A stretch of 29,602 nucleotides of DNA from a virus (lineage: Duplodnaviria; Heunggongvirae; Uroviricota; Caudoviricetes). Where the stretch lies: positions 1 through 29,602 of IMG/VR virus record IMGVR_UViG_2740892234_000018; one strand, 5' to 3'. The notes under the pieces were generated by a model. It made no database searches and was not told where the DNA came from. It worked only from the letters and a program-made list of their open reading frames with translations. A program made the translations under genes and the position numbers. Positions 5,137 to 29,602 of this stretch are shown here, in pieces (the first letter of the stretch is position 1; every line of letters begins with the position of its first letter).

Positions 5137-7973
5137 GTGAGTTTGCATGGAGCTGGAATGAACCGCAGCCAGCTATTGATCCGGACGACTTCGCGAACTT
5201 CAGCCAGTTGCCAAAAACCGGACTGCAACGCGCCATTCGTTACTACTATGAGGCGGACAAAAAGGCTCAGGAAGAACAGGATGCGAAGGAAGAAGCCTTT
5301 TTCGCACAATCCGCCATGGGTAAAAAACTCATGGCATCCCTTGAGGAAGCCGGGCAACGCGAAAAACTGATAAAAAACATCATCAGTAAGCGCCAGGAAA
5401 TAAAGCAAGACCCGGTGGCCTGCGCCTTTGCCGAACTGAAGGCACTTCCCGTTTATCTGCGAGACCCCCTGAGCCGCCGCCTCTCTTTTTTACGTAAGAA
5501 GCAGGAATCTGACCGCCAGAAAGGAAAAAACGCCAGGCTGGCAGAACGCTATGCACAAGGAACCCTGCTCAAAATATTCAAACGTCTGAAACGCACTGAC
5601 GGACGCTGGCTGACACCGTGTTATTGCTCCCTTGCCGGACGCGAACGCCTGGACGATTTGCTTTACCTGCCGCAGCTCAACAAACACCAGATACAGACGC
5701 TGGCCACCATGACGGCGGCGATGTTCAGCAGCACTTTTGAAACACTCTGCGATAACTTTGGCGCGACCGATGGCGAGCTGACCATGAAAATTGCGCTGAA
5801 GGCGTATCAGATGCTGGCCCGCATGGCGTTACATCTGCACACCATGCCGCCGCATTACGAAGCACTGAGAACGGACAAAGACCGGAAGAACGCACCGAAT
5901 ACGGAGCTGCTGCCGGGTGCCATCCTTCGCCTGACCTGTGCGGAATGGTGGAAACACAAACTGTGGCTTTTACGTTGCGAGTGGCGGGAAGAACAACTCC
6001 GTGCCGCCTGTCTGGTTTCCAGAAAAACATCACCCTATCTGAGCCAGGACGCGTTAAGCGAGTTTCGCGCACAGCGCGAGAAAACACGCGATTTTCTGAA
6101 AAGTTTCATGCTGGAAAATGAAGACGGGTTCACGATTGATCTCGAGACGGTGTATTACGCGGGAGTAAGTAACCCGGTTCACCGTAAGGCAGAAATGATG
6201 GCCACCATGAAGGGACTGGAACTTCTGGCCGAAGCCCGTGGCGACAGAGCGGTGTTTCTGACTGTCACCTGCCCGTCAAAATACCACGCAACAACGGAGA
6301 ACGGTCATCCGAACCCCAAATGGAACGGGGCCACCATGCGCGACTCCAGCGATTACCTGGTTAACACGTTTTTTGCGGCGGTCCGCAAAAAACTGAACCG
6401 CGACGGTCTGCGCTGGTATGGCATCCGCACGGTGGAGCCTCACCATGACGGCACTGTGCACTGGCATATGATGGTCTTTGCACATCCGGACGAGATTGAA
6501 ACCATCGTGTCCCACGTCTGCGATATTGCCATTCAGGAAGACCGCCACGAGCTGGGCGATGACATAACTCCGCGTTTTAAGGCGGAGTACGTAGACGGCT
6601 CAAAAGGCACACCAACCAGCTACATCGCCACCTACATCGGAAAGAACCTGGACAGCCGCGCCGTGGATGGCATCGACCCGAAAACGGGCAAGCCACGCGT
6701 TGACCACGAAACCGGAAAATCAATGGCCGAGAGCGTGGAACGCGCCATCGGCTGGGCGCGCCTTCACCGGGTCCGCCAGTTCCAGTTCTTTGGTATCCCC
6801 TCCCGTCAGGTGTGGCGTGAACTGCGCCGCCTTGCCAGCCAGATGGCACGCAACCCGGAAGGCCCGCAACGGCTGAAGGATGACGCAATGGACGCGGTAC
6901 TCGCTGCCGCTGATGCCGGATGTTTTGCCACCTACATTGAGAAACAGGGTGGCGTACTTGTTCCACGCAAAGACTACCTGATTCGCACCGCCTACGACCT
7001 CGCAGATGAGCTGAACGATTACGGTGAACAGAGCGTACAGATTTACGGGATCTGGTCGCCGCTCATTGGGGAGTCTTCCCGCGTATGCACGCATCCGGAT
7101 AACTGGAAGCTGGTAAGACGCAAACCGGAAGCGGAAGACAGCGCCCGCGAAAATGGTTTTGACCTTCAGGGCGGCCCTGCCGCCCCTTGGACTCGTGGCA
7201 ATAACTGTCCCCGTGTACAGGAAACAGACAACAACGGGACAGAACAGCCGGAAGAACGACCAACATCGTGGCTGCAGCTCCCTGACGGCGTTGAAGTGAA
7301 CGAATGGATGCGCTCACTGAAACGACACGAACGCCGGGCGCTGATGCGTTCGCTTCGTGACAAACAGGCAAAAAACAGCAGCGATGAAATGCAGAGCTGG
7401 ACACAGAGCCGCAAACAGCCGCGGCCTTTGCCTGATAACCACGAGTTACTCGCTAAAGAATGGCGGGAGTCTGCTGAATCTCTCGGCCTGCATATCGGTG
7501 AACAGCAGATGCAGCACCTGTTACGGGGCGGCAGTCTGTACGTTGACGGCAGCATCATTGCACCGCAGGGATTTGAAATTGTACGCAAACCGGATACCCG
7601 CCCGGACAGCCGAATCACGCAGCTCTGGCAACGCCTGAGCCGTAATCACGGCGTAAGCAGCACGGAGATCCGCCATAACCCGGTCGCCAGCTATCTGGAA
7701 CAGCTAGGGGCATCAGACCCCGAAGCCGCCGCACGCCTGGCATCCACACTTCAGCAGGACCAGAACACCATGAAAACCCCCGTTACCGTGCTTTCTGACA
7801 TGCTGCGCGCCATCCGTGACGCAGAGCACGCACAGAGAATCAGTGAAACCACTGAACGCGCCCGCCGCAAAGCAGACCTGCTGCGGAGTGGCCTGACCAG
7901 TGGAAACAAAAAACAGACAGAAACGGGATTCACAAATCCCGTAAATGAGCAAAAAACGCGCCAAAAAACATGA
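5133..7973 (+). CDS. A: Rolling-circle replication initiator (P2 gpA family, HUH endonuclease)
   Basis: HUH motif VHWHMMVF and catalytic tyrosine pair in SYIATYIGKN (Y-x-x-x-Y). Start taken at ATG 5133 rather than the track's GTG 5106. 946 aa. Confidence 0.9.
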   Translation: MSEFAWSWNEPQPAIDPDDFANFSQLPKTGLQRAIRYYYEADKKAQEEQDAKEEAFFAQSAMGKKLMASLEEAGQREKLIKNIISKRQEIKQDPVACAFAELKALPVYLRDPLSRRLSFLRKKQESDRQKGKNARLAERYAQGTLLKIFKRLKRTDGRWLTPCYCSLAGRERLDDLLYLPQLNKHQIQTLATMTAAMFSSTFETLCDNFGATDGELTMKIALKAYQMLARMALHLHTMPPHYEALRTDKDRKNAPNTELLPGAILRLTCAEWWKHKLWLLRCEWREEQLRAACLVSRKTSPYLSQDALSEFRAQREKTRDFLKSFMLENEDGFTIDLETVYYAGVSNPVHRKAEMMATMKGLELLAEARGDRAVFLTVTCPSKYHATTENGHPNPKWNGATMRDSSDYLVNTFFAAVRKKLNRDGLRWYGIRTVEPHHDGTVHWHMMVFAHPDEIETIVSHVCDIAIQEDRHELGDDITPRFKAEYVDGSKGTPTSYIATYIGKNLDSRAVDGIDPKTGKPRVDHETGKSMAESVERAIGWARLHRVRQFQFFGIPSRQVWRELRRLASQMARNPEGPQRLKDDAMDAVLAAADAGCFATYIEKQGGVLVPRKDYLIRTAYDLADELNDYGEQSVQIYGIWSPLIGESSRVCTHPDNWKLVRRKPEAEDSARENGFDLQGGPAAPWTRGNNCPRVQETDNNGTEQPEERPTSWLQLPDGVEVNEWMRSLKRHERRALMRSLRDKQAKNSSDEMQSWTQSRKQPRPLPDNHELLAKEWRESAESLGLHIGEQQMQHLLRGGSLYVDGSIIAPQGFEIVRKPDTRPDSRITQLWQRLSRNHGVSSTEIRHNPVASYLEQLGASDPEAAARLASTLQQDQNTMKTPVTVLSDMLRAIRDAEHAQRISETTERARRKADLLRSGLTSGNKKQTETGFTNPVNEQKTRQKT

Positions 7974-20102: not shown

Positions 20103-20999
20103 ATGCCTGCTGTTGACCTTTCCCAGTTACCGGAACCCGCCATCATCGCGGAGCCTGATTTTGAGGCAATTCTGGCTGACACAAAGGCCATGATGATTGC
20201 GTCCTATCCTGCCGAACAGCGTGAAGCCGTCTCCGCCGCGCTGGAGCTGGAATCGGAACCCCTGAACGTTATCGCTCAAACCATGTCTTTTCGTGAAATG
20301 CTGTTACGCCAGCGGGTCAATGAGGGTGCACGCGCCTGCATGCTAAGCCACAGCGCCGGGACAGACCTGGACAACCTCGCGGGCAATATGAACACAAAGC
20401 GCCTGGTTATCACTCCGGCAACGGATACCACCGACGCAGTGATGGAAAGTGACACCTCGCTGAGACTACGGGCGCAACGGGCATATGACGGTCTGAGTGT
20501 TGCTGGCCCGTCAGGTGCATACGAGTATTTTGCCCGCAGCGCCAGCGGTCTGGTACGCGATGCGCGGGCCATCAGCCCGTCTCCGGCCAACGTGACGGTT
20601 TCCATCCTGTCCACTGAGGGCGACGGCACGGCAACGGAGGCGTTGCTTAATACCGTTCGCGCCGTTCTGAATGCAGAGGATACCCGCCCGGTGGCCGACC
20701 GCTTGACCGTACAGAGTGCCAGAATCGTGACATGGCGGCTGAATGCAAAACTGTACTTTTACCCCGGCCCGGAATCCGAACCTATTCTGGCCGCGGCGGA
20801 ATCGTCGTTCAGGAAGTGGCTGTCTGAGCAGGGGCTTATCGGTCAGGACGTGGCGTTGTCAGCCATTGCTGCCGCACTGCATGTGCACGGTGTGCAACGC
20901 GTGGAGATAATCGAACCCACACAAAATATGGCCATCAGCGACATACAGGCGGCGCGCTGTGAGTCATTCACCATCAGCGAAGGTGGGCGTAATGAGTAA
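20103..20999 (+). CDS. J: Baseplate assembly protein J (P2 gpJ-like)
   Basis: 298 aa, position W-J-I. Confidence 0.85.
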   Translation: MPAVDLSQLPEPAIIAEPDFEAILADTKAMMIASYPAEQREAVSAALELESEPLNVIAQTMSFREMLLRQRVNEGARACMLSHSAGTDLDNLAGNMNTKRLVITPATDTTDAVMESDTSLRLRAQRAYDGLSVAGPSGAYEYFARSASGLVRDARAISPSPANVTVSILSTEGDGTATEALLNTVRAVLNAEDTRPVADRLTVQSARIVTWRLNAKLYFYPGPESEPILAAAESSFRKWLSEQGLIGQDVALSAIAAALHVHGVQRVEIIEPTQNMAISDIQAARCESFTISEGGRNE

Positions 21000-21522
21000 T
21001 TCACTGTTACCGCCATCAGCCAGCAATTTCATGCGTTGTGCCGAAGCTGTCGGAACGCGCATTACAGACATTCCGGTAGACCTCAACACGCTGTGGTCGC
21101 CGGACACCTGCCCGGTGCATCTGCTGCCTTATCTCGCCTGGGCATTTTCCGTTGACCGCTGGGATCGCAACTGGCCGGAAGAGACAAAGCGACAGGTGAT
21201 TCGTGATGCATGGCTGATACACCGACACAAAGGGACCATCAGCGCACTGCGCCGGGCCATTGAGCCGCTGGGATACCTCATTCGTGTGTCTGAGTGGTGG
21301 GAGTTCGGCGGAGAACCGGGAACATTTACCGTTGAAGTCGGCACGCTGGACAGTGGCGTGACGGAGGAAATGTATCTGGAAATGGAGCGGTTGATTGCTG
21401 ATGCCCGCCCGGTCAGCCGCCACATGACAGGGCTGAATATCATTCAGGAGATCCCGGGGGATATTTTCGCGGCGGCAGCAACTTACGACGGTGAAGTCAT
21501 TACCATTTATCCGGACGATTAA
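20992..21522 (+). CDS. I: Baseplate/tail protein I (P2 gpI-like)
   Basis: Start at MSNSLLPP overlapping the J end; 176 aa, same as P2 gpI. Confidence 0.8.
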
Positions 21523-21524
21523 GC

Positions 21525-23483
21525 ATGAGTACCACAACACGTAAATTTAAAACCATTATCACTGATACTGGTGCCAAAAAATTAGCTCAGGCAGCCGCGC
21601 CAGATGGTAATCCTGTCCGCCTGACTCACATGGCCGTGGGCGACGGTGGCGGCACGTTGCCCACACCAGACAGTAAGCAGACCCGTCTGGTGCATGAGGT
21701 GTGGCGACATACTGTTAATCGCGTCATCCTGGACGCAACACATCAGAACCGCATTATTGCGGAGCTGGTTATTCCTCCTGAAACGGGTGGATTCTGGATC
21801 CGGGAAATTGGTGTATTTGATGAGCACGGCGATTTAATCGCGGTGGGCAATACTGCCGAAAGTTACAAACCAACCGTTGCCGAGGGGTCCGGACGTGCAC
21901 AAACATTTCGCACCATTCTGACCGTATCCAGCACTGCCACCGTGGCGCTTACCGTGGATAACACCATGGTGATGGCCACAGTGGATTACGTGAATGACAA
22001 ACTGAAAGAACATGAACAGTCACGACGTCACCCGGACGCCTCGCTGACCGCAAAAGGCTTTGTTCAACTCAGTAGCGCCACTAACAGCACGTCTGAAGCA
22101 CTGGCCGCAACGCCGAAAGCGGTCAAGACAGCCTATGACCTTGCTAACGGGAAATATACCGCTCAGGACGCCACGACGGCACGAAAAGGAATAGTCCAAC
22201 TCAGTAGCGCCACTAACAGCACGTCTGAAGCACTAGCCGCAACGCCGAAAGCGGTCAAGACAGCCTATGACCTTGCTAACGGGAAATATACCGCTCAGGA
22301 TGCCACGACGGCACGAAAAGGAATAGCCCAGCTCAGTAGCGCCACCAACAGCGATTCAGAAACGCTGGCGGCAACACCAAAGGCGGTAAAGGCAGCCTAT
22401 GACCTTGCTAACGGGAAATATACCGCACAGGACGCCACGACGGCACGAAAAGGAATAGTCCAGCTCAGTAGCGTCACTAACAGTGATTCTGAAACGCTTG
22501 CCGCGACTCCGAAAGCGGTGAAAGCCGCTAATGACAATGCAAACGGGCGTGTGCCCTCTGGACGTAAGGTTAATGGCAAATCACTAGCCAATGATGTCAA
22601 TGTTACATCGCAGGATATTTTTAACGACCAGAGTATTGAGATTGGTGCAAATCAGAATCTGGATAATTACAAAACACCGGGGCTGTACCATCAGCCATTG
22701 AATGCCAATACAAGCGCAGCGCTGAAATACCCGGAGAATTTTGCGGGTACACTGGTTGTGCTTAAAAATGCCGGGATAACACAGATTTACTATGTGTATG
22801 ACACATCCAGAAGCTATACCCGCAGCCAGTACTCAACGGGTGACTGGACACCATGGACGCCACAAGATTCATTTCCGGTAGGTGCGGCGATACCGTGGCC
22901 TTCTGATTCAGTGCCTACAGGCTATACCGTTATGCAGGGGCAGACTTTTGATAAAACAGTCTACCCTCTGCTTGCAGTCGCTTATCCGTCTGGTGTGATC
23001 CCTGATATGCGTGGCTGGACGATTAAGGGCAAACCCGCCAGTGGTCGGGCCGTATTATCTCAGGAACAGGACGGCATTAAATCACACTCCCACAGTGCCA
23101 GCGCCTCCAGTACGGACTTGGGGACAAAAACCACATCATCATTTGACTACGGCACCAAGACGTCCAGTTCATTTAACCATGGCACTAAAACCACGAATAG
23201 CGCCGGGGATCATTCACACAATATTCCTGTTGGCAACACTGGCGCAGGTAATGGTGTTTCGGCTGGTTATAACTCAGGGCTTGGCACTGGAAAAACAAGT
23301 AACGCAGGGGGGCACTCTCACACAGTAAATATTGGCGCACACACTCATACGGTAGGAATTGGCGCACACACACACTCCGTTGCGATAGGTTCACACGGGC
23401 ATACCATCACCGTTAACGCTACGGGTAACGCAGAAAACACCGTAAAAAACATCGCATTTAACTATATTGTGAGGCTTGCATGA
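21525..23483 (+). CDS. H: Tail fibre protein (P2 gpH-like N-terminus, repeat region, His-rich tip)
   Basis: N-terminus [25 protein letters not shown]...; four tandem 44-aa repeats; C-terminal HxH tip [35 protein letters not shown]...NYIVRLA. Confidence 0.9.
22060..22560 (+). repeat. Tandem 132-bp repeats inside tail fibre gene H (about 4 copies)
   Basis: Unit starts at 22065, 22197, 22329 and 22461, each encoding ...[40 protein letters not shown]. Confidence 0.85.
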
Positions 23484-24382
23484 TTACGCTCATTCTTTCT
23501 GCACCAGTAACAGAAATGGCTGAAGCATTTAAGCAGGTATTTGCAAATGCAGATAGTGTGAATATTGTCGGAAAGCCATTTGAAACAATCAGAGAATTTG
23601 ACTGCATGGTAAGTGCGGCAAATAGTTTCGGCCTGATGGATGGTGGCGTTGATGCCGCCATTACCGCATTCTTCGGTACTCAGTTACAGTCCCGCGTTCA
23701 GAATCATATTCTTCGTGAATATCTCGGCGAACAGCCTGTAGGTTCTGCATTTGTCATTGAAACGGGGCATAATCATCACCCCTGGCTGGTACATGCGCCA
23801 ACAATGCGTGTTCCGTTGACAATTGACGGAACAGACGCTGTATATAACGCAACCTGGGCCGCTCTGCTTGCCATCTTTCAGCACAATAAAAACGCAACGA
23901 CAGACATGAAAATAAAAACAGTGGTATTCCCTGCAATGGGGGCCGGATGTGGTCAGGTGCCGTTTGAAAGTGTTGCCCGACAGATGAAGCAGGCATGGGA
24001 TAACTTTAATAAAAAAACAGAATCAATTAACTGGGAATACGCACAATCTCGCCAGTCGGCAGTATTTGGCACATATGCATACTGTCCGGGTAATTCCGTT
24101 TGCCGTTATGCGGATACTAAATATATTGGATGCGGCGATTATCGGACGTGTTGCTCTCGTTCCGGGCAAATCTGTATTAACCCTGAACATCAGGCTGATG
24201 ATGTACTGATACAACATCAGGCTAATAACCGTTTTCGCCCTGGTTCGCATATACACCGGATTAATCCAGAAAATCCCGTAGGTAATGTCACCTCTGGCGC
24301 ACATAGCCACGGAAGTAGCATCGTTATTGGTACTCCTACCCATACGCTCAATAAACAATATTCTGTCTCTGATATTAAGTAG
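23480..24382 (+). CDS. Macrodomain protein with Cys/His-rich C-terminal region
   Basis: ATGA-coupled to the H stop. Three macrodomain blocks: [39 protein letters not shown] and [15 protein letters not shown]-terminal part is Cys-rich with HxH motifs (GSHIH, GAHSHG). Confidence 0.8.
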
Positions 24383-24390
24383 AGGTGAAC

Positions 24391-24594
24391 ATGGATTTCA
24401 GAATGAGTGAACAATCACGGACCATAAAAATTTATAACCTGCTGACCGGAACTAATGAATTTATTGGGGAAGGTGATGCATACATTCCACCTCATACAGG
24501 TCTGCCTGCAAACAGTACCGATATTGCACCACCAGATATTCCGGCTGGCTTCGTGGCTGTTTTCAACAGTGATGAGGCATCGTGGCATCTCGTT
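24391..24594 (+). CDS. tfa: Tail fibre assembly protein, 5' fragment truncated by gap
   Basis: [18 protein letters not shown]...DEASWHLV is nearly identical to the N-terminus of the tfa at 27580; runs into the N run. Confidence 0.75.
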
Positions 24595-24604
24595 NNNNNN
24601 NNNN
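24595..24604. other. Run of 10 N (assembly gap)
   Basis: Ten N characters; the coding frame is discontinuous across it (tfa fragment before, stf codon about 21 after). Confidence 0.95.
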
Positions 24605-27580
24605 CAGAACTGCACAATCCAGCTGAAAGCAAAACGTAACAGCACCACGGTGGTGGTGAACACGCTGGCCTCAGAAAATCCGGATGAAGCCGGGCGTTAC
24701 AGCATGGACGTTGAGTACGGTCAGTACAGCGTTATTCTGTTGGTGGAGGGATTCCCGCCGTCACATGCCGGGACCATCACCGTGTATGAAGATTCTCAAC
24801 CGGGGACGCTGAATGATTTTCTCGGTGCCATGACGGAGGATGATGCCCGTCCGGAGGCATTGCGACGTTTTGAACTGATGGTGGAAGAGGTGGCGCGTAA
24901 CGCGTCCGCGGTGGCACAGAACACGGCAGCCGCGAAGAAGTCAGCCAGTGATGCCAGCACATCAGCCCGTGAGGCGGCAACCCATGCGGCTGATGCTGCG
25001 GACTCAGCACGCGCAGCCAGCACGTCAGCCGGACAGGCCGCGTCGTCGGCTCAGTCAGCGTCTTCCAGCGCAGGAACGGCATCAACAAAGGCCACTGAAG
25101 CATCAAAAAGTGCTGCCGCTGCAGAGTCCTCAAAAAGCGCGGCGGCCACCAGTGCCGGTGCGGCAAAAACGTCAGAAACGAATGCTGCAGCGTCACAACA
25201 ATCAGCAGCCACTTCTGCATCCACCGCGACCACGAAAGCGTCAGAAGCTGCCACCTCAGCCCGGGATGCGTCGGCTTCAAAAGAGGCGGCAAAATCATCA
25301 GAAACGAGCGCAGCCTCGAGCGCCAGTAGTTCCGCTTCCTCGGCAACGGCGGCAGGCAATTCCGCGAAAGCGGCAAAAACGTCCGAGACGAACGCTAAGT
25401 CTTCTGAAACGGCAGCGGAACAGAGTGCCTCCGCAGCAGCAGACTCAAAAACAGCGGCTGCATCATCTGCCAGCGCCGCGTCAACAAGTGCCGGGCAGGC
25501 CTCAGCCAGTGCCACCGCTGCCGGAAAGTCGGCAGAAAGTGCCGCATCATCCGCTTCAACAGCCACAACGAAGGCTGGCGAAGCCACTGAACAGGCCAGC
25601 GCAGCAGCGAGTTCTGCTTCCGCAGCGAAGACATCCGAAACGAACGCGAAAGCGTCGGAAACCAGCGCAGAATCCTCAAAAACGGCTGCCGCATCGTCCG
25701 CCAGTTCGGCGGCGTCATCGGCCTCATCTGCGTCTGCTTCAAAAGATGAGGCGACCAGACAGGCGTCAGCAGCGAAGGGCAGCGCCACGACGGCATCCAC
25801 GAAGGCGACAGAGGCAGCTGGCAGTGCGACGGCGGCAGCACAGAGCAAAAGTACAGCAGAATCCGCGGCAACGCGCGCCGAGACAGCAGCAAAACGGGCA
25901 GAGGATATTGCATCCGCCGTGGCGCTTGAGGATGCGAGCACGACGAAAAAGGGGATAGTACAGCTCAGCAGTGCGATCGACAGCACTTCCGAGTCACTGG
26001 CGGCAACGCCAAAAGCCGTTAAGGCCGCGTATGACCTGGCTAACGGGAAATACACCGCACAGGATGCAACGACAGCACAGAAAGGGATAATCCAGCTAAG
26101 CAGCGCGACCAACAGCACGTCTGAAACGCTGGCGGCAACGCCAAAGGCAGTAAAAGCAGCCAATGACAATGCTGAGAAACGTCTGCAGAAAGATCAGAAC
26201 GGTGCGGATATCCCTGGCAAAGACACCTTTACGAAAAATATTGGTGCCTGCCGTGCCTTCGGTGGGTCAGTAAGCACAACAACAGGAAACTGGACGACTG
26301 CACAGTTTATCGAGTGGCTGGATTCTCAGGGAGCATTTAACCATCCATACTGGATGTGCAAGGGTTCCTGGTCTTATGGCAATAATAAAATCATTACTGA
26401 TACTGGCTGCGGTAATATTCATCTCGCCGGAGCTGTCATTGAAGTAATGGGGATAAAGTCAGCGATGACGATCCGCATTACCACTCCGACCACATCCAGC
26501 GGTGGCGGAACAACCAACGCCCAGTTTACCTATATTAATCACGGAACAGATTATTCACCTGGCTGGCGAAGGGACTATAACTCCAGAAATAAGCCAACGG
26601 CATCAGAGATCGGGGCGCTACCGTCAGGTGGAACAGCAGTATCATCAGTTAATCTGGCTTCAAAAGGTCGGGTAGCCGCGCTGACAGACAATACGCAGGG
26701 GGCAGCAGGTCTTGAGTTATACGAGGTGTATAACAACGGATATCCAACAACGTATGGAAATATCATTCACCTGAAAGGGATGACAGCCGTTGGCGAAGGT
26801 GAGTTACTCATCGGCTGGAGTGGTACAAGCGGTGCTCATGCTCCGGCATTTATTCGTTCACGACGGGATACGACCGACGCAAACTGGTCGCCGTGGGCGC
26901 AGCTTTACACCTCGGCTCATCCTCCTGCAGAGTTTTATCCAGTCGGTGCACCAATCCCGTGGCCATCAGATACCGTTCCGTCTGGTTATGCCCTGATGCA
27001 GGGGCAGACTTTTGACAAATCTGCATACCCGAAACTTGCAGCCGCTTATCCGTCAGGCCTGATCCCTGATATGCGTAGCTGGACGATTAAGGGCAAACCT
27101 GCCAGTGGTCGGGCCGTATTGTCTCAGGAACAGGACGGCATTAAATCGCACACCCACAGCGCCAGCGCATCCAGTACGGATTTGGGGACGAAAACCACAT
27201 CGTCGTTTGATTACGGCACTAAATCCACGAATAACATCGGGGCGCATACGCACAGTGTGAGCGGTACAGCCGCAAGTGCTGGAAACCATACTCATAGTGT
27301 CACAGGCGCATCAGCAGTCAGCCAGTGGTCACAAAATGGGTCAGTACATAAGGTAGTGTCTGCGGCCAGTGTGAATACAAGTGCTGCAGGAGCGCACACT
27401 CATAGTGTCAGCGGCACAGCCGCATCTGCAGGTGCACACGCACATACTGTCGGTATTGGTGCTCATACGCACTCGGTTGCGATTGGCTCACATGGACACA
27501 CCATCACCGTTAACGCTGCTGGTAACGCGGAAAACACCGTCAAAAACATCGCATTTAACTATATTGTGAGGCTTGCATAA
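24605..27580 (+). CDS. stf: Side tail fibre protein (lambdoid Stf-like), 5'-partial
   Basis: Begins in frame at ...[19 protein letters not shown]; long Ala/Ser-rich region; two repeats of the same type as in H; His-rich tip ending NYIVRLA. Closely resembles recalled phage lambda Stf. Confidence 0.85.
25950..26175 (+). repeat. Two tandem repeat units of the fibre-type 44-aa repeat inside stf
   Basis: [44 protein letters not shown] followed by [30 protein letters not shown]. Confidence 0.7.
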
Positions 27581-28014
27581 TGGCATTCAGAATGAGTGAA
27601 CAACCACGGACCATAAAAATTTATAATCTGCTGGCCGGAACTAATGAATTTATTGGTGAAGGTGATGCATATATTCCGTCTCATACAGGTCTGCCAGCAA
27701 ACAGTACCGATATTGCACCGCCGGATATTCCGGCAGGCTTCGTGGCTGTTTTCAACAGTGATGAGGCATCGTGGCATCTCGTTGAAGACCATCGGGGTAA
27801 AACGGTTTATGACGTAGCGTCAGGGGACGCGTTATTTATTTCTGAACTCGGTCCGTTACCGGAAAATGTTACCTGGTTATCGCCGGAAGGGGAGTTTCAG
27901 AAGTGGAACGGCACAGCCTGGGTGAAAGATGCAGAAGCAGAAAAACTATTCCGGATCCGGGAGGCGGAAGAAACAAAAAACAGCCTGATGCAGGTAGCCA
28001 GTGAGCATATTGCG
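27580..28014 (+). CDS. tfa: Tail fibre assembly protein (lambdoid Tfa-like), 3'-truncated by gap
   Basis: [33 protein letters not shown]... ATG overlaps the stf stop; runs into the second N run. Confidence 0.85.
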
Positions 28015-28024
28015 NNNNNNNNNN
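28015..28024. other. Run of 10 N (assembly gap)
   Basis: Ten N characters; about 120 nt before and after the gap are near-identical but not identical. Confidence 0.95.
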
Positions 28025-28025
28025 G

Positions 28026-28301
28026 TCGCCGGATGGAGAGTGTCAGAAGTGGAACGGCACATCCTGGGTGAAAGATGCAGAAGCAGAAAAACTGTTTCGG
28101 GTACAGGAGGCAGAAGAAACAAAAAACAGCCTGATGCAGGTAGCCAGTGAGCATATTGCGCCACTTCAGGATGCTGTAGATCTGGAAATCGCAACGGAGG
28201 AAGAAACCTCATTGCTGGAAGCCTGGAAAAAGTATCGGGTGTTGCTGAACCGTGTTGATACATCAACTGCACAGGATATTGAATGGCCAGCACTGCCGTA
28301 G
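28026..28301 (+). CDS. tfa: Tail fibre assembly protein, 3' fragment after gap
   Basis: In-frame continuation ...[72 protein letters not shown]... to a stop at 28301. Confidence 0.75.
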
Positions 28302-28398
28302 GGTAAAACATATAAATTCTATAATTAGATGTATCTTTCCATTTACGGCAAGGAAGGGGGCTTGGAAGACGTAAAGCATCTCACACCAAGAGTATTTT

Positions 28399-28989
28399 TT
28401 ATATGTCAGGTGTCTGAAGTTTTGCTTTGGCTCTTAAAATGGTTTGCCGCGAGGTTTTGAATTCCCGGGCAATGGCACTTATACTTACACCTGACTTAAT
28501 CCGTTCGAATACCACCTGTTTCTGTTCTTCATTTAACACAGGTGGTCGACCAAAACGTTTCCCTGCGCCCCGGGCTCTTACTATCCCGGAATGAGTGCGT
28601 TCAAGTAAAAGGTCTCGTTCAAATTCAGCGACTGCTGAAATTACTTGCATCATCATTTTTCCTGTTGGACTGGTCAGGTCAATGCCCCCCAATGCTAAGC
28701 AATGCACTCTGATACCTGTTTCGGTCAGTTGTTCCACTGTTTTCCTGATATCCATTGCATTACAACCAAGGCGATCCAGTTTTGTCACAATCAATTGATC
28801 ACCACATTTCAGGCGAGCAAGCAACCGGTTAAAACCAGGACGCTCACTGGTTGCTGCTGAGCCGCTAATGTGTTCTTCGATTATTTGCTGAGGTTTGATT
28901 TTAAAACCTGCACTTTCGATTTCCCGGCGTTGATTTTCGGTGGTCTGATCCAGCGTTGATATCCGACAGTAAGCAAAAATTCGAGACAT
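28399..28989 (-). CDS. Serine recombinase (resolvase/invertase family)
   Basis: 196 aa; N-terminal catalytic block YCRISTLDQ (active-site Ser), [10 protein letters not shown], and a C-terminal HTH ([19 protein letters not shown]). Confidence 0.85.
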
Positions 28990-29368
28990 AGTGAGACTCT
29001 ATACGAAATTGGTGTACATATCATAATGCATATCCAAAAATTATTTCGCTTATTATTGTACATATTTGTATGTATACGTTCGAAAATAAACGAATTCGGA
29101 TGCAGTCCCGTAATTTTGGTGTAACCAAAAATCGATTTTTTGAAAAATGGCTTTAACTCGGTTTGTTTTTCGAACTCCGGGCGGACTCGAGGAAGACGAA
29201 TAATAGTGTTGTATGTTATTTCAACCAGATTTTAAGTTGTTTGGTCGTGGAAAAGTGGAGCAAAATGTTGTTAAAGTGGAAAAATGGTAAAAAAAGTAGG
29301 TTGTTGCGGAATAACGTAGTTGTTGATATTTTTTTTAATGCATTGAAAAATTATTTTTCAGGGGGGTA

Positions 29369-29602
29369 TTACACTTTACCATTTAAATTTTGGTTGTCTT
29401 TAAGAACTGATATCGCTGTTTGTAATAATTCTTTGTTATCCAGCCATGACTTTTTCTTTATGTTTCCTTCAATGTAATCAAGCAATGTTCTGGTATTGAT
29501 AGGTCTTCCCTGTTTTGCTACTTCCACGACAGCATCTCCCAGGATAATTCTGACTTCAGGAAGCTGCGCAGGGAACCACTTTAGGGTGTCTTTTGATTTC
29601 AT
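29369..29602 (-). CDS. Hypothetical small protein in AT-rich segment
   Basis: 77-aa ORF whose ATG is the last three bases of the window; AT-rich context, no recognisable motif. Confidence 0.4.
   Translation of the reverse strand: MKSKDTLKWFPAQLPEVRIILGDAVVEVAKQGRPINTRTLLDYIEGNIKKKSWLDNKELLQTAISVLKDNQNLNGKV

Follow-up and report, generated by a model that had tools for sequence, protein, structure and literature searches.

PinR at the end of a Rac/Qin-type lambdoid prophage: an orphan serine recombinase of probable resolvase descent, without a fibre switch in cis

Does a recombinase gene situated next to phage tail fibre genes serve to switch those fibres? This question is raised by the AT-rich segment 28302-29602 of the IMG/VR virus record IMGVR_UViG_2740892234_000018 (Caudoviricetes), of which positions 1 to 29,602, referred to here as the window, were analysed. 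For the serine recombinase encoded in this segment, an earlier note made from the letters alone had considered a fibre-switching invertase, a separate mobile element, or the boundary of a mis-scaffolded block. The recombinase is PinR, known from the Rac prophage of Escherichia coli K-12, and it does not act as a fibre switch in cis. Considering all observations, it is probable that PinR represents an orphan, catalytically crippled descendant of a resolvase, located at the end of a lambdoid prophage.

A catalogued prophage end with a fixed fibre-recombinase junction

As described in the earlier note, base composition falls directly after the stop codon of the tail fibre assembly gene tfa, followed by a minus-strand serine recombinase gene and a small open reading frame (ORF), the latter being ydfK/ynaE. 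The GC content is 0.394 in 28302-29602 and 0.528 in the window as a whole. Among all intervals of 1301 bp the former value is the joint minimum, approximately 3 standard deviations (SD) below their mean of 0.531 (SD 0.044). The drop is strongest in ydfK (0.372) and in the two spacers, between ydfK and pinR (28990-29368, 0.33) and between tfa and pinR (28302-28398, 0.361), with a GC content of 0.45 in the recombinase ORF itself. The pinR gene (28399-28989, minus strand) encodes 196 amino acids (aa) with a resolvase catalytic domain (Pfam Resolvase, 2.5e-36) and an HTH_7 DNA-binding domain (3.8e-11). Its product is identical to K-12 PinR (b1374, Rac) in 196/196 residues (100%) and to K-12 PinQ (b1545, Qin) in 194/196 residues (99%).

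Of 5426 complete E. coli genomes, 2879 contain DNA of this segment, and 2680 of these carry it nearly full length, mostly with 95-99% identity and annotated as ‘recombinase family protein | ydfK’. Common to Rac (locus L002) and Qin (L089) of K-12 and to strain 2013C-3264 (L001) is the gene order side tail fibre (stf), tfa, convergent pin, ynaE/ydfK, and ynaM/ynfT, sometimes followed by a dinI-like gene, and then the prophage end (attR), which adjoins prfC in 2013C-3264. In the viable phage HannyBb, an identical protein is encoded between different, unrelated fibre genes and int/xis, which is the slot of the lambda b region. Due to the gene order shared by Rac, Qin, 2013C-3264, and HannyBb, the segment is identified as the known accessory end of lambdoid prophages of the Rac/Qin type, equivalent to the lambda b region, and the element as such is already known. 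The flanking DNA of the K-12 pinR and pinQ loci is 95-97% identical to the window, which differs from them by a 60-bp spacer indel and by slightly less eroded relic half-sites (13 vs. 15 mismatches, see next section). Apart from this, and from the location of the best-matching complete prophage at prfC rather than at ttcA, nothing of substance sets the window apart from PinR/PinQ. In the phage collection, DNA identity reaches 95% or more in just 11 records, and of the other 515 a single one exceeds 60%. The best DNA match, 2013C-3264, has a pinR gene with an annotated frameshift, being one C short in a C-run (L001 12098-12687; equivalent to window 28683-28690), and thus outright pinR pseudogenes exist.

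No inverted crossover sites were found flanking the fibre genes, as the earlier note had already remarked. Inverted repeats in 20500-29602 are restricted to pairs of 14-21 nt with 76-88% complementarity, which is chance level, and none of them brackets stf/tfa sensibly. For the pix half-site TTCTCCCAAACCAA, no match with up to three mismatches was obtained in the window, 2.5 being expected by chance, and the generic core of the Din invertases, AAACCNNGGTTT, occurs 17 times against an expectation of 14.4, again chance level. As a computational stand-in for an inversion PCR, a 601-bp probe across the tfa-pinR junction was used, which is colinear in 2644 genomes, compared to the 2680 that carry the segment. 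The orientation differs as well: in e14, pinE has its 5' end next to the invertible stfP-tfaP/tfaE-stfE block, whereas in the window pinR is convergent with tfa, so that its 3' end faces the fibre genes. In agreement with this, a published BLAST survey (Kirigo et al. 2025, PMC12529663) reported inversions for e14 alone and none for Rac or Qin. A dyad TTTTGG-TGTAA-CCAAAA at approximately 29114-29130 with a hix-like appearance was considered and dismissed: its symmetry runs opposite to that of AAACC..GGTTT, its sequence is not the same in the window and in K-12, and it is located outside the array described below.

The suspicion that the recombinase does not belong to the Gin/Hin/Pin group was confirmed. 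In a joint alignment, in which the Gin match was cross-checked against the alignment of the Protein Data Bank (PDB) entry, the identity of PinR is highest with PinE (38%), followed by the HK225 invertase (36%), Gin (35%), Hin (34%), and the Tn3 and gamma-delta resolvases (32% each). Din invertases are approximately 60-70% identical to one another. Compared to solved structures, PinR scores highest with Gin (105 bits), followed by the gamma-delta and Tn3 resolvases (approximately 82 bits) and Sin (61 bits). The PHROGs label of the family is ‘DNA invertase’, and a search of NCBIfam returned sub-threshold matches only (Mpi, XisF, and others), the invertase model Mpi reaching 85 bits against a cut-off of 272, so that no curated equivalog is available. 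Judged from these alignments, PinR appears as an outlier to Din invertases and Tn3/gamma-delta resolvases alike. With the Din invertases (Gin of Mu, Cin of P1, Hin of Salmonella, and PinE of e14) it shares the build of a small serine recombinase with a C-terminal helix-turn-helix, the neighbourhood of phage fibre genes, and Gin as top structure match. It differs from them by its low identity (34-38%), by insertions of 4 aa and 2 aa, by the lack of flanking 26-bp inverted crossover sites and of an invertible segment, by the opposite orientation to the fibre genes, and by the replacement of the catalytic arginine with cysteine. A Din-type invertase, 36% identical to PinR, is encoded in the equivalent b-region slot of phage HK225 next to dinI and attP (L004 6998-7546); the annotation reveals no obvious invertible fibre segment beside it, and it may be another orphan invertase.

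The array of the relatives, its relic, and the lost arginine

A large protein database contains thousands of PinR relatives. The best 120 listed are 77-100% identical and many are marked as plasmid-borne, with E. coli, Salmonella, Klebsiella, Providencia, Morganella, Yersinia, Shewanella, and others as hosts. In the plasmid collection, 1756 records show a DNA match (899 of Klebsiella, 374 of Escherichia). Close relatives with 64-86% identity are solitary genes on plasmids, some of them in the context of Tn3-family transposons, and copies on E. coli plasmids (e.g., ColV) show a DNA identity of 82-83% over the gene and approximately 80 bp upstream. The plasmid-borne ‘recombinase family protein’ (WP_000086538.1 of pAPEC-O2-211A-ColV; WP_016529083.1 of a K. 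pneumoniae IncF plasmid) shares 78-84% protein identity and the half-site register with PinR. Unlike PinR, the plasmid copies retain the arginine at residue 76 (CGT), a near-intact upstream array (4/54 mismatches in ColV), and a ratio of non-synonymous to synonymous substitution rates (dN/dS) of approximately 0.06.

The upstream array was sought in a set of 80 loci, taken from one genome per species, of which 72 are of the Arg type (arginine at residue 76) and encode proteins 64-81% identical to PinR. These Arg-type loci span the Enterobacterales, Vibrio, Methylomonas, Nitrosomonas, Paraburkholderia, and others. In 64 of the 72, six half-sites TGTMCGAAA / TTTCGKACA are located at -115, -98, -75, -52, -34, and -21 upstream of the ATG, with 2-8 mismatches over 54 half-site positions (median approximately 4). 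The half-sites at -115/-98 form an inverted pair, the 26-bp palindrome TGTCCGAAACCG-NT-CGGTTTCGTACA; those at -75/-52 form an inverted pair of 32 bp, and those at -34/-21 a direct pair. A TATAAT motif lies between the second and third subsites, and the spacers vary while the half-sites are conserved. The neighbouring genes are variable cargo, among them genes for LysR regulators and transporters, resistance and partition genes, and IS elements. Tn3-family transposase genes are neighbours in L033, L064, L086, and L027, and in L086 the transposase gene (tnpA) is divergent, with the array between tnpA and the recombinase gene, as in Tn3. Examples of the array are found in L086 (2805-2961) and L006 (approximately 6631-6760), with further members of the clade among L016-L087.

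Three subsites overlapping the promoter of the recombinase gene are the hallmark of res-type resolvases such as those of Tn3 and gamma-delta, and a directly repeated accessory subsite is known from Sin/beta. Considering site architecture and Tn3-type contexts, the Arg-type clade probably comprises resolvases, with the 26-bp palindrome as putative crossover site. Similar to Tn3/gamma-delta, the three subsites of the Arg-type relatives are situated directly upstream of the gene and overlap the -10 element, some in a tnpA-res-tnpR layout beside a Tn3-family transposase, and, as in Tn3/gamma-delta res, TGTC stands first in the half-site TGTCCGAAA on the outer sides of the inverted subsites. A difference is given by the gene-proximal subsite, which is a direct and not an inverted repeat. 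PinR itself is further removed from Tn3/gamma-delta by its 32% identity, its eroded array, the cysteine at the position of R71, and the lack of a transposase or partner site.

Upstream of pinR in the window, a relic of this array was detected at 29000-29102 (minus strand), in register with the consensus of the 64 loci and overlapping the probable pinR promoter. The half-sites at 29094-29102, 29077-29085, 29054-29062, 29031-29039, 29013-29021, and 29000-29008 contain 3, 2, 2, 2, 3, and 1 mismatches, respectively, and a -10-like TATGAT at 29020-29025 is assigned to the putative promoter. Direct repeats of 25 nt (29008-29032 and 29052-29076) are no separate feature but remnants of the half-site array. 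Over all 54 positions, 13 mismatches were counted in the window, 15 in K-12 Rac, and 4 in the ColV plasmid, and the pinR loci range from 13 to 16, compared to the median of approximately 4 in the relatives. The putative crossover site (site I) of the window carries 9/24 mismatches and is no better than shuffled sequence. A second crossover site of the family type was sought in the window, in the 25-kb 2013C-3264 locus (L001), in Rac, and in e14, and none was found, the best candidate having 8/24 mismatches with shuffles at 6-9. In the complete genomes examined, pinR is flanked by prophage genes and not by a transposase gene.

The catalytic nucleophile of PinR, Ser11 (TCA, 28957-28959, minus strand), is intact and invariant in the alignment with Gin, Hin, PinE, gamma-delta, and Tn3. 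Residue 76, which corresponds to the catalytic arginine R71 of Tn3/gamma-delta, is a cysteine in PinR (TGT, 28762-28764, minus strand), converting the motif KLDRLGR to KLDRLGC. Every aligned serine recombinase has arginine at this position, as do 112 of the 120 closest database clusters; cysteine is restricted to the clusters of PinR/PinQ and to P0009, which represents an allele of 85% identity that likewise adjoins tfa. The codon of the ColV plasmid homologue is CGT and that of PinR TGT, i.e., a single C-to-T change. Considering the catalytic set of Tn3 (Y6, R8, S10, D36, R68, and R71), PinR retains Y7, R9, S11, and R73 but lacks the full set; the position of D36 is occupied by glutamate throughout the PinR clade. 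Among the PinR-specific substitutions in the alignment, no compensating arginine was found. In Tn3 resolvase, R71A and R71K mutants show no resolution in vivo and a cleavage rate reduced approximately 1000-fold, to about 1e-3 (Olorunniji and Stark 2009, PMC2794168).

A dN/dS of 0.35 was obtained for the two Cys lineages and one of 0.16 for PinR and the ColV allele, compared to a median of 0.06 and a maximum of 0.154 for 68 Arg-type pairs of similar divergence. These ratios suggest that purifying selection on the Cys lineages is relaxed approximately six-fold but not gone. The window and K-12 pinR differ by 4 synonymous and 0 non-synonymous changes, and due to this exclusively synonymous variation the constraint, though relaxed, is considered to persist. 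An exception within the prophage slot is given by one E. coli chromosome (L090, 5386-6922), in which a ColV-like pin allele with Arg76 occupies the dinI-ynaE-pin-tfa slot next to prfC. Per block, 58-60/60 nt of this allele are identical to ColV, and eroded distal half-sites are retained. An Arg-type allele in a prophage slot thus points to ongoing exchange between plasmid and prophage copies of pin, apparently by gene conversion.

We propose that the ancestor of PinR belonged to the res-type clade of small serine recombinases of plasmids and Tn3-family transposons and would have acted on an upstream array of three subsites overlapping its own promoter. In the prophage lineage, this array has eroded and the putative 26-bp crossover site is no longer recognisable by its motif, the arginine equivalent to R71 has been converted to cysteine by the single C-to-T change, and purifying selection is relaxed about six-fold without being lost. 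PinR would accordingly not recombine in cis at this locus; it probably survives as a passenger of the prophage that binds DNA or regulates, and any effects on inversion elsewhere are probably weak or indirect. The data show the identity of the protein, its synteny, the lack of sites in cis, the architecture of the family, the change from arginine to cysteine, and the shift in dN/dS, whereas we infer from them that PinR is no longer catalytically competent and that it acts as a regulator or indirectly.

Neighbouring genes and scaffold structure

The tfa gene (tfaR/tfaQ type; 27580-28301, plus strand) is split by a scaffold gap, and its stop codon at 28301 marks the start of the AT-rich segment. 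It aligns to tfa of 2013C-3264 and of K-12 Rac, and 28068-28301 match Pfam Caudo_TAP (6.4e-32). A full-length match to Rfam IS009 (RF02111) with 224.6 bits, compared to a gathering score of 117, is located at 28069-28267 (plus strand), wholly inside the 3' coding part of tfa; it was the sole match of the Rfam scan, and none was obtained in the pinR-ydfK spacer. The spacer between the convergent tfa and pinR genes is nearly invariant across the window, K-12 Rac, and 2013C-3264, and neither a terminator-like nor a crossover-like site was found in it. A scan for promoters and terminators yielded nothing above the expectation from shuffled sequences. In the ydfK-pinR spacer, the 60-bp AT-rich indel (29306-29365) is present in the window and in 2013C-3264 and missing from K-12 Rac. 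The complete ydfK/ynaE gene (29369-29602, minus strand, 77 aa; annotated as cold shock protein) matches phrog_2718 (2.8e-47), the window ending exactly at its ATG. It corresponds to ynaE in Rac and to ydfK in Qin, and the ydfK label stands under every listed genome match. A plus-strand ORF of 104 aa (29163-29477) is probably no gene, as it has no Pfam or NCBIfam match and is unannotated in the RefSeq genomes examined.

Two gaps of 10 N each, at 24595-24604 and 28015-28024, interrupt the window. Due to the gap at 28015-28024 within tfa, 28025-29602 represent a separate contig, as the idea of a block boundary would have it. The order stf-tfa-pinR-ydfK is nevertheless genuine: 24605-28014 match 2013C-3264 at 99.94% and 28026-29602 continue colinearly (99.3-99.9% overall between window and L001; 99.9% colinear for this gene order). 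Across this gap, 135 bp of tfa are duplicated (27880-28014 and 28026-28160, 92.6% identical); either the two contigs end in different alleles of tfa or a repeat has collapsed there. Suspicion falls instead on the gap at 24595-24604, where a P2-like prophage meets the lambdoid stf gene 51 bp past its start, and which is probably a scaffolding mis-join via repeated tfa sequence. The P2-like part encodes a replication nickase, portal, terminase, capsid, and baseplate proteins, fibre gene H, a Macro-domain ORF, and a tfa fragment (first 204 nt). Within fibre gene H, tandem repeats of approximately 132 bp with 84-87% identity occur at 22034-22547 and represent repeated peptide units. The Macro-domain ORF (23480-24382, plus strand, 300 aa; phrog_2613, unknown function) is situated between fibre gene H and the tfa fragment, carries the N-terminal Macro (ADP-ribose-binding/hydrolase) domain (Pfam 9.6e-19), and has C-terminal His-rich motifs that recall fibre tips.

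Alternative explanations and the published role of PinQ and PinR in e14

Considering the alternatives, a cis-acting invertase in the manner of Gin (Mu), Cin (P1), or PinE (e14), flipping part of stf-tfa for host range, is suggested by the adjacent side tail fibre and chaperone genes, by Gin as best structural match, and by the PHROGs label. It has practically no likelihood left and is already contradicted: 20500-29602 lack inverted crossover sites and the window lacks a pix-like site, tfa and pinR converge, their junction does not vary in 2644 of the genomes against 2680 with the segment, identity to Din invertases is low, the same gene occurs beside unrelated fibre genes in HannyBb, and the published survey found inversions in e14 only. 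An active resolvase of a separate mobile element (a transposon or an integrated piece of a plasmid), whose insertion the AT-rich block would mark, is very improbable too. The plasmid-borne and Tn3-family-associated closest relatives with their res-like arrays, a composition unlike that of the fibre genes, and the plasmid-like Arg-type allele recombined into the same slot in L090 are in agreement with such an origin, and to this extent the gene does cluster with transposon resolvases. This holds, however, for its ancestry only. In complete genomes no transposase or terminal repeats accompany the gene, which is a fixed part of the prophage and continues into ydfK-ynaM-dinI-attR instead of a transposon; it is syntenic in Rac, Qin, and a viable phage, the array is eroded with no partner site found, and the catalytic arginine is lost.

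The main rival is that PinR is an active invertase acting in trans within an anti-phage system, in which infection induces it to flip a Din-type invertible segment elsewhere in the genome, in K-12 the P segment of e14, and the resulting StfE2 blocks adsorption of phage T2. In favour of it, and against a crippled enzyme, with PinQ over-produced, inversion of the 1797-bp P segment reaches 88% instead of 30%, and PinQ protects K-12 from T2, PinR being stated as equivalent (Kirigo et al., NAR 2025, PMC12529663); the window protein is identical to PinR. Furthermore, T2 survivors carry the inverted P segment, which encodes the chimeric StfE2 that blocks T2 adsorption, a ΔpinQ strain is more sensitive to T2, and deletion of either inverted repeat abolishes the effect, from which the authors conclude that PinQ and PinR are active invertases, PinQ inverting e14 in trans (PMC12529663). 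Opposed to this are the cysteine at the position of Tn3 R71 in both PinR and PinQ, the family half-site TGTCCGAAA, which is unrelated to the pix half-site TTCTCCCAAACC, and the lack of pix-type sites with up to three mismatches in the window. The e14 P segment is also rare: together with pinE it was colinear in 170/5426 genomes, an undercount as inverted forms split the match, compared to 2680 with the pinR segment. Moreover, according to Table S4 of the same study, inversion amounts to 30% in the wild type and 22% in ΔpinQ and is reduced to 1.5% in ΔpinE although pinQ and pinR are intact, and no entry of this table has PinQ assayed in a ΔpinE host (PMC12529663). Due to the cysteine, the unrelated half-site, the rare P segment, and the ΔpinE result, a direct catalytic role of PinQ/PinR in e14 inversion is considered unproven, an indirect role, for instance by modulating PinE or by binding DNA as a regulator, is no less likely than a direct one, and the trans-acting invertase as a whole appears unlikely to us, though it is to be taken seriously.

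Further observations weigh against the loss of catalysis that we favour. The R71 mutants of Tn3 resolvase are described as ‘not inert’ (PMC2794168), and by analogy residual activity of PinR could become apparent on over-expression. The effect of the Arg-to-Cys change is read, again by analogy, from R71A/K of Tn3 and not from PinR or a close relative. No biochemically characterised member of the Arg-type clade was found, its status as resolvases being deduced from the array and its contexts. In addition, the protein is intact and near-invariant in approximately half of the E. coli genomes and in a viable phage, which argues for a function. Tentatively, PinR and PinQ may be pseudo-recombinases that have lost the arginine and their own res site but that relaxed purifying selection still maintains, in approximately half of the E. 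coli genomes and in viable lambdoid phages, for a part in regulating or modulating through DNA binding; the published PinQ-e14 phenotype may then be indirect. As pseudo-recombinase, PinQ might bias or stimulate inversion catalysed by PinE or alter gene expression, rather than cut DNA. A preprint attributing a transcriptional repression phenotype to PinR lends weak support to a regulatory role.

For prophage annotation, the segment is a routine, already catalogued module that should not be flagged as a new fibre-switching system. PinQ/PinR have recently been promoted as the first ‘recombinase-activated’ anti-phage system, and the remaining interest of the locus lies in the contrast between a degenerate PinR and this mechanistic claim. 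The missing arginine, the unrelated family site, the decayed site of pinR itself, and the ΔpinE result make up a simple, testable case for PinE, and not PinQ, as the catalyst. Beyond the prophage, the recombinases of plasmids and transposons related to PinR form a clade that is large, apparently uncharacterised, and marked by its sharply conserved array of six half-sites; this clade is a candidate for a new resolution system.

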